Below, in pieces: positions 29,332-33,690 of a stretch of 50,727 bases of DNA; the first letter of the stretch is position 1, and each line of letters opens with the position of its first letter. Source of the DNA: Candidatus Zixiibacteriota bacterium (GTDB lineage: Bacteria > Zixibacteria > MSB-5A5 > JAABVY01). The translations under genes and the position numbers were made by a program. The stretch covers positions 1-50,727 of the forward strand of contig WJMC01000141.1 in the NCBI GenBank assembly GCA_014728145.1, in the 5' to 3' direction. The notes below the pieces were generated by a model. It was not told where the DNA came from, ran no database searches, and saw nothing but the letters and a program-made list of their open reading frames with translations.

Positions 29332-32300
29332 CTATTGCTTTACTGACATCTTGCGTTTATTGAGTTCTTTCAGAAATTCCTTTTCCAGGCCGGAAACGGC
29401 CTTCTTCTTCTTATTTTCCTCGGCCAGTTGGGCCAGTTTATCCAGTCTCAATCTGGGCTGGACAGCCCCTTCGGAGCGTTTCTTGTGAAGATCCAACAGG
29501 AATCTGGCCATGTCCTCGGAGGACACCTGGTCGGTCGAGGTCACCGCTGACTGCTCCTGCGTTTCAGGCTTAAGCTCTTGATTCGATTTGTCTTGTCCCA
29601 GAAGTTTTTCGGGTGATTTGAGGATCAGTTTGCGTTTTTCCGATGTCTTCTCCGTCTTGGCGGAGCTGTCTTCGGTTTCAGATTGAGCCAGTTTGCTAAT
29701 CAAATTTGAAGCTTTATCGGAGATCGTATCCAGTATAGATTTAGATTTTTGTTTTTTCGGTTTCTGGCTGACCGGTGCGACCTTTTTGCCTGATGCTGGC
29801 TTGCCATCGACAAACTTCTTACCGTCCAGAAGCTGGCGAAGCTTACCCATCGCCTTCAGACGAGGCCACTTAGACTGGGTGCGGTTGAGGTGGATAAAGA
29901 TCGGGTAGAGCGATTCTTCATAGAAGCGGTCGTATTTGTAGATCGTCGCCAGGAGTTCGCCGGATGGAAACACAGTGCTCAGGTGCCGGCTGATGGTAAT
30001 ATCGTTCCAGTGCTTCTGGGGAAAGTCGAAATAGCGCAACAGACCTTCTTTGTACTTCAGCAGGTTTCCCACCGCAACGCTGTTCTCACGCCCGTAGATA
30101 CCGCGGAAACGATCGATAAGCTCAAGCGCTTCATGTTTTGATTGTGCCTGGCTGATCAGGTCCAGCAACTTGGAGGCGGCATTCTTTTTAGAGGCCGTAA
30201 TCCGTCGCAAAACCCTGCGCTTGATATTGTTCCAGCAGTACTGCTTTTCTGCGCGAGGGAAAATTCTGGCCAGTTCCGACCAGGCCGCCAGGTCCGGTGC
30301 TCCGACGAACAGGCGCGGATTGGCCAGCCCCCTCTTTTCCAGGTCCATCAATGTCTTCTTCCAGTCCTCGCCGGAGGTCGGATCACCTTCGGTCAGTGCC
30401 AGAAGCTTGCGTTGTCCGGTCGCGTTTGCGCCGATCACCGCCAGATAATGCTTGATTTTTCCGGTCGGATGGGATTTGTCAAGGCAGGAGTCAAGCCAGA
30501 TATAGGGAAAGCGCGATGAGGAAACCACCTGGTCAAAGTACTCATTATAAGCTTTCTTCCAGTCATAGATCACCTCGTCGAGGCTGGACTCGTCGAGATT
30601 GTCGATATTGCCCACAAGATCGCGCAACGCTATCTCGACATCCAGAGACCATGGTTTTACAGGCTTGTTGCTTTTAACTTCATAGTAGCTGGTTTCGGAA
30701 TCCGGAATCTTCTCGAACTCTTCATCATCCGGAGTTACGAGATCGTCTTTGAGCTGATCCACCATACCATCCGCAGAAAACTGCTCGGACTCTAATCCGG
30801 TCTCTTCAAACTCACTTTCAGATTTTTTCAGCTTTTCGGTTTGGTTGTTTAACCTCTCCAATTCAGCTTTCTGTTCGATTTCCATTCCGGAATTCTGCTC
30901 CAGTTCAGCCTCTTTCTGGGCCCTGACCAGCAGTTCCTCGATCTCGTCATCATCGTCGTCGTCTTCCTCATCGAAATGAATATCCGACGTTTCATTCAGC
31001 TTTTGAGTATCATCAGGATCTTCCTCGATGACCTCCTGCTCGGCAGTCATCATCACCAGATCGACAGCATCTTCCGGGATATCATCCTGGGGGTCTATCT
31101 GATCGGAATCTTCGACAGGATCTGTACCGACCTGCTCGGTTATCTCTTTTGTGGAATGAGCCGGCTTGTCTGTATTCTCTTCCGCCAGGATTTCTTCCAT
31201 TTTATCGATCGATTCTTTTTCCCGCACAGCAGAATCGGATTTATCCAGTTTAAAAGTCGGTCGCGAATCGATAATCCTCTGCTTGAGATCTGCATCCGCG
31301 GTTTCAGCTCTCTGTGGTTCTGGCTTTCTTTTTATTTCACCGGAAACCGCTGTTTCACTATGCTGTTTCGGTTGTACAGTTTCAGTTTTGCTGGTTTCTG
31401 ACTTGACCACAGGTTTTGATTCAGTAACTGCTTTGCTTTGGAGAGCTTCTTTCGACGCTTCTGCCTGTTTGCGTGCAACAGTCTTTTCGGGTTGCATCTT
31501 ATGGGAATGCTTCTCAGGGGAAGAATTGACCTGTTCCTGCTTGTTATCTTTTCTGGTTGCCTTCCCGGGTTCATCGTCAAACGCCTTCAGGGGCGCTTTC
31601 GGCTCGGAAGGTCCCCAGGGCTCATCTTCCGGAATCTCTGTCAACTGCGCGCCCTCGGGCAACATCTCCCTGTAAAAACGGGAGATCACATCCGGAATAG
31701 CGTCCTTGCCACTCCGTTTCGAGGAGGCTCTGGAAGGTCGGGCTGACGGCTTGTCAATTCGAGACTGCGACTTCGTCTGCTTTTTAGTCTCGCTCGCTTT
31801 CGCTTCTTCATCAGCAGTTTTTGCTTTGGAAGCAGGCTTTGTTTCAATCTCAGGCTCTTCATCCTGATGGCGCTCGCGATCGAAGTCACGATAAAGGCGT
31901 GCGATCAGATCAGGGATTTTTCTTTTGACACGGCATCTCTGAATATCGGTATTGAAATCATCCTCATCGAGGTCACCTTCGCCCAAAGTCTCCCTGGCAG
32001 GCTTGCCTTCATTTGAAGAAACGAAGACGGATTCTTGTTCGGGTTCACTATTTTGTTTACCAGCTTCAGTCTTTTGCTCAATTTCCTGGCTGTCTGTTAG
32101 GGATGTCGCTTTTTCTGTTTTCGTTTTTGAGACATCAGGCTGTACCAGATCAGTTTTTGCAGGAGTTTCTTCATGCTCGGAAGCTTCAACCTTCTCAGGG
32201 TTGAATGATTTTATCCGATTTTTCTCCATACGGGCCTGTCTCTCAGAATCGAGCAGTTTACTCGCAACTACTTTTTTCTCGACCGCTGGTTTGCCGGTTC

Positions 32301-33690: not shown

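Follow-up and report, generated by a model that had tools for sequence, protein, structure and literature searches.

The window examined here is a 50.7-kb stretch of DNA (50,727 nucleotides) from a Candidatus Zixiibacteriota bacterium (assembly GCA_014728145.1, contig WJMC01000141.1) and carries a flagellar gene block that includes flhF, flhG and fliA. The gene located in this block at 29332-33690 on the minus strand, hereafter X, encodes a large protein in which a domain related to IS256-family transposases lies between long disordered flanks. Comparison of X with its orthologues showed an anciently captured IS256-family transposase, which was acquired in the ancestor of one clade and kept as a single syntenic gene. 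The genes and signals of the locus are as follows.

35767-36891, minus strand: flhF (Pfam SRP54)
34842-35783, minus strand: flhG (Pfam ParA/MinD-type ATPase)
34081-34845, minus strand: fliA (Pfam sigma-70 regions r2/r3/r4)
33784..34065, minus strand: orf93, a small conserved protein always found between fliA and X, without a Pfam match
33699..33706, minus strand: Shine-Dalgarno sequence AGGAGAGG, 8 nt 5' of the X ATG (sequence read directly)
29332..33690, minus strand: X, 1,452 amino acids (aa), stop codon included in the coordinates, one uninterrupted frame (list of open reading frames (ORFs) and translation)
28117..29319, minus strand: DUF2225 gene (zinc-ribbon/TPR-like; Pfam), starting 12 nt past the X stop and followed by two PilZ-domain genes

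The Pfam scan of the window genes identified flhA, flhF, flhG, fliA, together with the 93-aa ORF, upstream of X, and DUF2225, PilZNR/PilZ, PilZ, a 201-aa ORF, a GAF histidine kinase, a receiver, a CheB-like protein and FapA downstream of it. The intergenic gaps flanking X are 93 nt upstream and 12 nt downstream, and no terminator-like sites were found on the coding strand within the intergenic gaps of the window. An earlier reading, made from the letters of the window only (the sequence-only reading), had described a single ORF with a strong Shine-Dalgarno sequence, 12 nt from the next gene and placed after flhF-flhG-fliA; these points were confirmed in the sequence and by the Pfam assignments of the neighbours, and all peptides quoted in that reading are present at the expected place. 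The transposase-derived domain and its diagnostic residues are located as follows.

29791..30660, minus strand: transposase-derived folded domain, aa 1011-1300 (partial helix-turn-helix, RNase H-like core and helical insertion domain)
30490..30492, minus strand: Asp1067, the first catalytic Asp (ISCth4 D175), retained
30298..30300, minus strand: Ala1131 at the second catalytic Asp (ISCth4 D241), substituted
30226..30237, minus strand: Cys1152...Asn1155 (C1152-W-N-N1155), degenerate CxxH (ISCth4 C262/H265), His lost
29977..29979, minus strand: Ser1238 at the catalytic Glu (ISCth4 E348), substituted

The Pfam model PF00872 (Transposase_mut) matched aa 1040-1232 of X with an E-value of 6.8e-15 (55.3 bits; cutoff 21), and the NCBIfam IS256 model NF033543 matched aa 1019-1231 with 96.9 bits, which is under its cutoff of 150. 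When seven orthologues were compared with 15 typical transposases using hhalign, the probability of homology was 100% (E=1.6e-52), and family columns 41-324 were paired nearly gaplessly with typical-transposase columns 123-407 of 421. Searches by tBLASTn with typical transposases of ~400 aa hit only positions 29776-30867 of the window (mainly 29797-30642; up to E=5e-43, 31% identity) and yielded no further IS256-like copy in the 50.7 kb. The alignment to IS256-family transposases proposed in the sequence-only reading is borne out by the PF00872 match, whereas the length of the segment had to be corrected from ~210 to ~290 aa (1011-1300). Homology extends over ~285 residues, with 31% identity to the typical relative P0013. 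The domain is globular in composition (35% hydrophobic residues, net charge +10) and contains the motifs FPYIWLDS (aa 1061-1068), AVIGANATGQRKLLAL (aa 1084-1099), DWKKTLMDLEKRGL (aa 1109-1122), VGAPD (aa 1129-1133), QYCWNNIKRRVL (aa 1150-1161), YFDFPQKHW (aa 1220-1228) and ISRHLS (aa 1233-1238).

The AlphaFold model of aa 1011-1298 had a predicted local distance difference test (pLDDT) score of 78 and a predicted template modelling (pTM) score of 0.74; a second run reached a pLDDT of ~90 over the domain. The AlphaFold 2 (AF2) domain model consists of a strand-strand-strand-helix-strand core followed by a helical bundle. The top five Foldseek matches were all ISCth4 transposase (6xgx/6xg8; E=1e-11 to 2e-8, probability 1.0, TM 0.50-0.55), with the Hermes transposase next. 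The fold shared with ISCth4 TnpA (PDB 6xg8/6xgw/6xgx) includes the RNase H-like core and the four-helix insertion domain, with part of the helix-turn-helix before them.

The active site of ISCth4 is formed by D175, D241 and E348, and its insertion domain bears a CxxH motif (C262/H265) (PMC7780238). To read the corresponding positions, residue columns were anchored on P0013, aligned to the ISCth4 chain (E=7e-46), and counted in 16 family sequences versus 47 typical-length relatives. The column of the first catalytic Asp (D1) holds Asp throughout the family except for His in P0011, P0010 being gapped there (typical relatives, 45/47). The column of the second (D2) reads A, A, D, N, K, D, R, D, S, R, K in the family and is Asp in 46/47 typical relatives, and that of the catalytic Glu (E) reads S, S, S, D, L, G, E, K, S, G, K, with Glu in 43/47 typical relatives. 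The His of CxxH was found in 0/16 family sequences versus 47/47 typical relatives; the Cys is kept in most family members (S or T in two) and in 44/47 typical relatives. No family member has a complete catalytic set, and no alternative acidic triad is conserved, because at D2 and E the orthologues variously have Ala, Asn, Lys, Arg, Ser, Gly and Leu. The sequence-only reading was right that the first Asp is retained (D1067) and the Glu replaced (Ser1238). Its proposal of a displaced second Asp did not hold: this residue is substituted by Ala1131, and the 'APD' Asp of X, two residues past the D2 position, is not conserved, with E, D, R, G and N among the orthologues. Apart from D1 and the Cys of CxxH, X keeps the C-terminal 'L-x-G-x-x-F-x-D-G' ending of IS256-type transposases.

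The losses extend to the parts by which the transposases recognize DNA. In ISCth4, the dimerisation domain (1-56), the N-terminal DNA-binding domain (56-108), which recognises base pairs 14-25 of the transposon end, and the helix-turn-helix (108-165) precede the core, and IS256 binds DNA less well or not at all when Y120, G123, T126 or R127 is mutated (PMC7780238). Homology of the X family begins at position 123 of the typical transposases, and therefore the dimerisation domain, the N-terminal DNA-binding domain and the equivalents of Y120 and G123 are absent. In the remaining part of the helix-turn-helix, T126 is replaced by Ser and R127 by Leu or Met; of the four helix-turn-helix residues on which DNA binding by IS256 depends, three have been lost. 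Where typical relatives have Ser, Thr or Arg in the recognition-helix region, the family has acidic or hydrophobic sequence ('SFEQM', 'SLDEV'). A 'KIVLLRSxEDxRPQ..KPD' motif occurs ~33 residues N-terminal of the domain in most family members; it was considered as a relic of the N-terminal DNA-binding beta-hairpin and rejected, as the hhalign homology stops at position 123. No inverted-repeat pair was found to bracket the domain or the X gene, in line with the sequence-only reading, which had noticed no terminal inverted repeats. Judged by its sequence, the X domain lacks the defining features of a functional IS256 transposase or insertion sequence, i.e., the DDE triad, CxxH, the N-terminal domains, inverted repeats and a score reaching the NF033543 cutoff.

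Orthologues of X were found by several searches. The word-indexed protein search yielded two orthologues of the same length and architecture, 97% (P0001/L002) and 70% (P0002/L001) identical, which come from independent assemblies and have the same neighbours. The C-terminal 463 aa used as a query gave no matches in this type of search, low-complexity words having probably swamped the candidates, and the family profile returned typical transposases only. The exhaustive HMMER search with aa 1000-1260 against 1.84 billion representatives detected nine more proteins (E=1e-58 to 1e-37, 32-42% identity), mostly of 576-1,006 aa with the domain internal (P0008 and P0010 are shorter). These proteins are clearly apart from the ~400-aa transposases that follow at ~30% identity, and ten members aligned over 288 columns with one single-residue gap. 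Unlike IS256-type transposases, the domain is found inside family proteins of 576-1,452 aa with long disordered flanks, and is single-copy, syntenic and vertically inherited. Two checks named in the sequence-only reading turned out in its favour: the RNase H-like core is present in the AF2 model, with ISCth4 as the Foldseek match, and the 97% and 70% orthologues share the fusion architecture.

The reference-genome scan revealed five X loci in metagenome-assembled genomes (MAGs) labelled Candidatus Zixiibacteriota or 'uncultured Ignavibacteria'. The order flhA-flhF-flhG-fliA-orf93-X-DUF2225-PilZNR/PilZ-PilZ-(~206 aa)-GAF kinase-receiver was observed in every locus with enough flank (judged for L001-L006, L008-L011 and L036). 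It holds for at least eight distinct orthologues with 31-97% domain identity, including the most divergent, P0009 and P0011. Loci L004 and L005 have identical local gene order, near-identical gene lengths and closely similar X; their MAG labels differ (Candidatus Zixiibacteriota vs 'uncultured Ignavibacteria'), and at least one label is probably wrong.

The ratio of non-synonymous (dN) to synonymous (dS) substitution rates was calculated by region against the 70% orthologue (L001), with separate counts against the 97% orthologue. For the domain, dN was 0.047 and dS 1.14 (dN/dS 0.041), comparable with the neighbouring genes (0.004-0.09). The last 67 residues (aa 1386-1452) had a dN/dS of 0.054, and four islands in the acidic region, aa 321-360 (0.11), 416-500, 566-610 and 661-715, ranged from 0.04 to 0.11, while the linkers between them ranged from 0.4 to 0.7. 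Against the 97% orthologue, 11 synonymous and 0 non-synonymous differences were counted in the domain, and the ratio in the acidic region was 0.32. The dS of X versus L001 is ~1.1, also in the well-aligned domain, and is two to four times that of flhG, fliA, orf93, DUF2225 and PilZ (0.28-0.56). Saturation or a noisy estimator, a weaker codon bias, or locally raised rates of mutation or recombination might explain this difference. With single-copy syntenic orthologues and purifying selection, X is, on the comparative sequence data, a domesticated transposase in the operational sense. The degenerate columns, the fixed synteny across 31-97% identity, the dN/dS of 0.04 and the same ORF in independent assemblies substantiate the view of the sequence-only reading that X is an exapted, dead transposase and not an insertion.

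Outside the transposase-derived domain, X comprises the following parts.

33331..33690, minus strand: basic Lys/Arg/Ser/Thr-rich N-terminal tail, aa 1-120 (composition)
30661..33330, minus strand: acidic low-hydrophobicity region of variable length, aa 121-1010 (conserved islands and fast-evolving linkers)
32674..32715, minus strand: motif AKWLLKLVKPSEVK, aa 326-339, of the form h-x-h-[VI]-[RK]-P-[PS]-E-V-[KR]
32191..32445, minus strand: conserved island, aa 416-500 (83-97% identity to the 70% orthologue; dN/dS 0.09)
31546..31995, minus strand: two conserved islands, aa 566-610 and 661-715 (dN/dS 0.04 and 0.10)
30934..30972, minus strand: acidic run DEEDDDDDDEIEE, aa 907-919 (sequence)
29335..29790, minus strand: basic flexible C-terminal tail, aa 1301-1452 (net charge +12; isolated helices in AF2)
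29362..29394, minus strand: C-terminal motif SGLEKEFLKEL, family consensus S-G-[LM]-E-R-E-[LI]-L-E-[ED]-L

The first 120 aa contain 22 Lys, 11 Arg and no Asp (net charge +28), a histone-H1-like composition that agrees with the histone-tail-like N-terminus of the sequence-only reading. Lys/Ala/Thr/Ser-rich N-termini are also present in the orthologues P0004/L003 and P0005, though not in every member. Within this tail, a 27-nt patch at ~33382-33408 of the window (aa 95-103) reads 'AMQSGAALT' versus 'ASEITLASA' in the 97% orthologue L002, with identical flanks; it is explained neither by a frameshift nor by an inversion and looks like a small replaced or hypervariable segment. The following region (aa 121-1010) has a net charge of -87, 18% hydrophobic residues and no Pfam domains. 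The long acidic region of the sequence-only reading is real but not featureless, as it includes the islands under strong purifying selection. The sequence preceding the domain varies from ~180 to ~1,010 aa across the family, and a search for tandem repeats as the source of the disordered region found none of note. The motif h-x-h-[VI]-[RK]-P-[PS]-E-V-[KR] is present in most distinct members (Q, P0002, P0003, P0004/L003, P0006, P0009, L004 and L005). Each of the islands aa 566-610 and 661-715 has one copy of IPD-x-I-x-R-x-Y-R (IPDLIARLYRDF and IPDVISRFYREM), and this motif pair is confined to the clade of the window and P0002.

In the model of aa 1011-1452, the C-terminal tail had pLDDT values of 22-53, with helices at aa ~1320-1331, 1391-1406, 1413-1428 and 1434-1451, none of which is packed on the domain. 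The terminal motif was found within the final 20 residues in 13/13 family sequences examined. The N-terminal 'LSQDEIDALL' peptide of FliM binds CheY and FlhG. A relationship of the X terminal motif to this peptide was tried and kept only as a weak lead: just the L, S, E and L positions agree, and X has Arg or Lys where the key hydrophobic residue should be. No transmembrane segment was detected in X; its most hydrophobic 19-residue stretch scores 0.85 on the Kyte-Doolittle scale and is part of the folded domain.

The slot occupied by X was surveyed in sister lineages by a metagenome scan with a DUF2225 alignment, which returned 27 loci. X was found in the slot only in the two loci with the upstream flank covered and DUF2225 at least 56% identical. 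In ~17 loci with DUF2225 34-42% identical, the flhA-flhF-flhG-fliA-...-DUF2225-PilZ-...-kinase block is kept without X. The slot of 13 X-less loci contains an orf93-like gene and a ~135-aa protein with an N-terminal transmembrane helix; of the other X-less loci, four have a different small transmembrane protein and two have nothing. The small genes are as follows.

L015, L017-L022, L024, L030, L032, L034, L035 and L037: ~135-aa FipA-like gene between fliA and DUF2225 (e.g., L017 6522-6984)
L025 6612-7002, L027 1342-1699 and L028/L029: second small transmembrane protein type in the slot, ending '..MR.RLL.Y.E.RS.GR'

The protein FipA, a transmembrane helix followed by DUF2802, is the product of a gene directly downstream of the flhF-flhG-fliA operon and brings FlhF to the pole; its residues G110, E126 and L129 are invariant, and its function requires the transmembrane anchor (PMC11620751). 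The ~135-aa proteins share a C-terminus of the form 'AREML..G.....IR..LPISEGELALL', and their G-x15-E-x2-L spacing equals that of G110/E126/L129 in FipA. DUF2802 was the best Pfam hit, below threshold, for 2/5 scanned proteins (E=0.023 and 0.11). Spacing and profile hits suggest that FipA-like proteins exist beyond the gamma-proteobacteria. X was counted in at least 12 loci and a small protein in ~17, with no locus having both; no FipA-like ORF was found elsewhere in the window. The position of X matches that of the FipA-like gene of the sister lineages, because both occupy the same slot between orf93 and DUF2225. In sequence, no match to DUF2802 was obtained in X or its tails at E-values up to 10. 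The best hhalign pairing of the tail was LSGLERELL with ISEGELALL (E=0.56), which share the pattern h-S-x-x-E-x-x-L-L including the equivalents of E126 and L129. The correspondence between X and the FipA-like genes is one of position; the sequence comparisons did not support homology. The ending of the second small protein type weakly resembles the penultimate helix of X (DMARFLLDLHKKRSEG; z ~3 in some pairs only), and the orf93 of L025 and L027 are those most like the orf93 of the window.

The product of orf93 is charged and has a conserved N-terminus and a C-terminal '(I/V)D(L/V)KA' ending, which is kept even in the sister lineages; its dN/dS is 0.028, and it has no Pfam or NCBIfam match. 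In the 93-nt gap between orf93 and X, a sigma-28 promoter was sought by eye and rejected, as only a partial -10-like 'CTGATAA' is present and the -35 element is absent. The PilZNR/PilZ ORF (27366-28292 of the window, minus strand; 308 aa) shares 176 nt with the end of DUF2225. Its start in the window is probably internal to this mechanically called ORF, because the orthologous products are shorter (252-254 aa), with an overlap of only ~14 nt. The literature on DUF2225 yielded no functional information.

Several known systems were compared with X. Like HubP/FimV, X is large, has an extensive acidic low-complexity cytoplasmic region and belongs to organisms using FlhF/FlhG; unlike them, it lacks LysM, a transmembrane segment and the C-terminal FimV/TPR part, PF00872 being the only domain found at E-values up to 10. 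The likeness to HubP/FimV is therefore one of composition, as the sequence-only reading had itself stated. FipA is the better comparator, because X occupies the FipA-like slot of the sister lineages. Both genes lie directly downstream of the flhF-flhG-fliA block, but X is ~ten times larger, has neither a transmembrane helix nor a detectable DUF2802, and contains a transposase-derived domain. With the eukaryotic FHY3/FAR1 and MUSTANG proteins X shares the recruitment of a Mutator-superfamily member as a host gene under purifying selection, without transposon ends. They are transcription factors keeping the WRKY/FAR1 DNA-binding domain and the SWIM zinc finger, whereas X comes from a bacterium, no longer has the N-terminal DNA-binding parts of its ancestor and gave no FAR1 or SWIM match in Pfam.

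Other unusual relatives were observed among the IS256-like proteins. P0050, P0080, P0114, P0128, P0130, P0131 and P0143 are proteins of 800-1,170 aa from organisms of high guanine plus cytosine content, with a C-terminal IS256-like helix-turn-helix and core. An N-terminal transmembrane helix (in most of this P0050/P0131 group) precedes a coiled coil of 'ELE' repeats, 500-800 aa long; D1 and D2 mostly persist, while CxxH is degenerate. The context examined for the group (locus L039) is not flagellar, and these proteins may represent another independent exaptation of the same IS256 subgroup. P0020 and P0053 (~682 aa) combine an N-terminal multi-pass membrane domain, a Gln/Pro-rich linker and an IS256-like core, in which D2 is Asn or Lys, the His is Arg or Tyr, and the Glu is Asp or Ser. 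The P0020-type context (locus L040) is likewise not flagellar, with a carrier-protein/AMP-binding gene and a hybrid kinase adjoining; from the sequence features, this looks like a third inactive fusion type. The closest typical-length relative of the X domain, P0012 (405 aa, locus L038), has Glu at D1 ('YMWAEG') and Gly at the catalytic Glu ('TSNPLGAFF'), and may be a decaying or separately inactivated stand-alone copy.

Taken together, the data suggest that the old domesticated transposase core is probably used, without enzymatic activity, as one module of a disordered scaffold or adaptor for the flagellum. We infer a flagellar role of X from operon position only, and a scaffold function rather than a nucleic-acid-binding one. 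X would have been built around a captured transposase, of which positions ~123-407 of ~420 aa survive. The dead core would have become a folded structural or interaction hub under purifying selection, while the conserved peptides, above all the free C-terminal helix (SG[LM]ERELLEEL), would provide docking sites for partner proteins, X as a whole acting in the cytoplasm as a scaffold or adaptor within the module, linked to FlhF/FlhG/FliA, for the assembly and placement of flagella. Several observations weigh against this proposal. The putative flagellar role of X is read from gene order only, and the X-bearing lineage is known from metagenomes only. D2 is kept in P0003, P0006, P0009 and P0010, and E in P0007 only; residual metal or nucleic-acid binding is possible, because D1 is kept in nearly all members and D2 or E in a few. 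The basic N- and C-terminal tails and the domain charge of +10 would suit nucleic-acid binding as well. X is without the transmembrane anchor that FipA needs, and homology of its tail to the FipA-like proteins was tried and found no support: the hhalign E-value was 0.56 with the DUF2802-like type and 0.061 with the second type, a hidden Markov model (HMM) of the FipA-like C-termini scored X no better than shuffled sequences, and pairwise alignments reached z ~3 for only 4/28 pairs (maximum 3.2), inconsistently.

The basic composition is also the starting point for reading X as a transposase-derived DNA-binding regulator or nucleoid-associated factor, which would control late flagellar genes downstream of FliA, its core, partial helix-turn-helix and histone-like tails binding DNA, perhaps at relic IS256-type ends. 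This is consistent with the kept first catalytic Asp and overall DNA-binding fold, the charges of the N-terminal 120 aa (+28), C-terminal tail (+12) and domain (+10), the position of X after the sigma-28 gene fliA, and the eukaryotic precedent of domesticated Mutator-type transposases acting as transcription factors, to which the MULE-derived FHY3/FAR1 of plants would be the analogue. It appears unlikely, however, because the parts recognising DNA in ISCth4 and IS256 have been lost. The end-recognition parts of ISCth4 are missing or mutated in X (N-terminal DNA-binding domain; Y120, G123, R127) (PMC7780238), the recognition-helix region is acidic or hydrophobic in the family, the dimerisation domain is gone, and the basic N-terminal tail is not found in all members. 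A functional replacement of FipA by X, either as a non-orthologous displacement or through fusion of a transposase into a fipA-like gene, with X as a soluble hub binding FlhF by its conserved C-terminal helix and determining where the flagellum is placed, would account for the mutual exclusion of X and the small membrane protein in one slot (at least 12 vs ~17 loci), and is consistent with the lack of another FipA-like ORF in the window and with the h-S-x-x-E-x-x-L-L pattern shared by LSG[LM]ERELL and 'ISEGELALL' in the best hhalign pairing. It is nevertheless doubtful, given that the sequence similarity has no statistical support, the G110 equivalent is not conserved in X, the sister proteins themselves have only sub-threshold DUF2802 matches (E=0.023, 0.11), and the transmembrane helix required by FipA is absent from X (PMC11620751). 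Continued activity of X as a recombinase or nuclease, at a non-canonical active site and for example in a programmed DNA rearrangement that controls motility, could be imagined from the kept D1067 and the nearby second acidic residue of some orthologues (the 'APD' Asp), but the loss of the CxxH His in all members and of the DNA-recognition domains, together with the absence of inverted repeats nearby, makes it highly improbable. Finally, similarity to a transposase and degenerate catalytic residues would be expected of a decaying copy too, so that a recent IS256 insertion, a pseudogene read by chance or an assembly chimera had to be considered. These explanations are already refuted by the intact ORF in independent assemblies from different samples, by orthologues down to 31% identity that align with one single-residue gap, by the dN/dS of 0.04 and the 0 non-synonymous versus 11 synonymous differences in the close pair, and by the fixed position without inverted repeats.

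That DDE transposases can be domesticated into non-catalytic host proteins is well established for eukaryotes, and to our knowledge few bacterial cases are known. The full-text literature, within its incomplete coverage, contained no description of a bacterial IS256-derived host protein and nothing on the X gene. What appears to be new is a bacterial, non-catalytic domestication tied to a flagellar cluster, domestication itself being already known. The old origin of X, its one syntenic position, the strong selection and the defined losses show which part of the transposase fold is reusable. Annotation pipelines will label such genes 'transposase', which is misleading. Lying in the FlhF/FlhG/FliA block and in the slot of a FipA-like gene, X is thus a candidate for polar FlhF targeting outside Proteobacteria. 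More speculatively, a membrane-anchored FipA-like partner of FlhF may have been swapped, in flagellar placement, for a giant soluble disordered hub on a dead IS256 core. Co-option would have followed the arrival of the transposase within the resident fipA-like gene or beside it, and the conserved peptides of X would draw in FlhF/FlhG or components of the C-ring, perhaps through assembly of a multivalent or condensate type. If such a swap took place, X would be a bacterial counterpart of eukaryotic transposase domestication, in the placement of an organelle.

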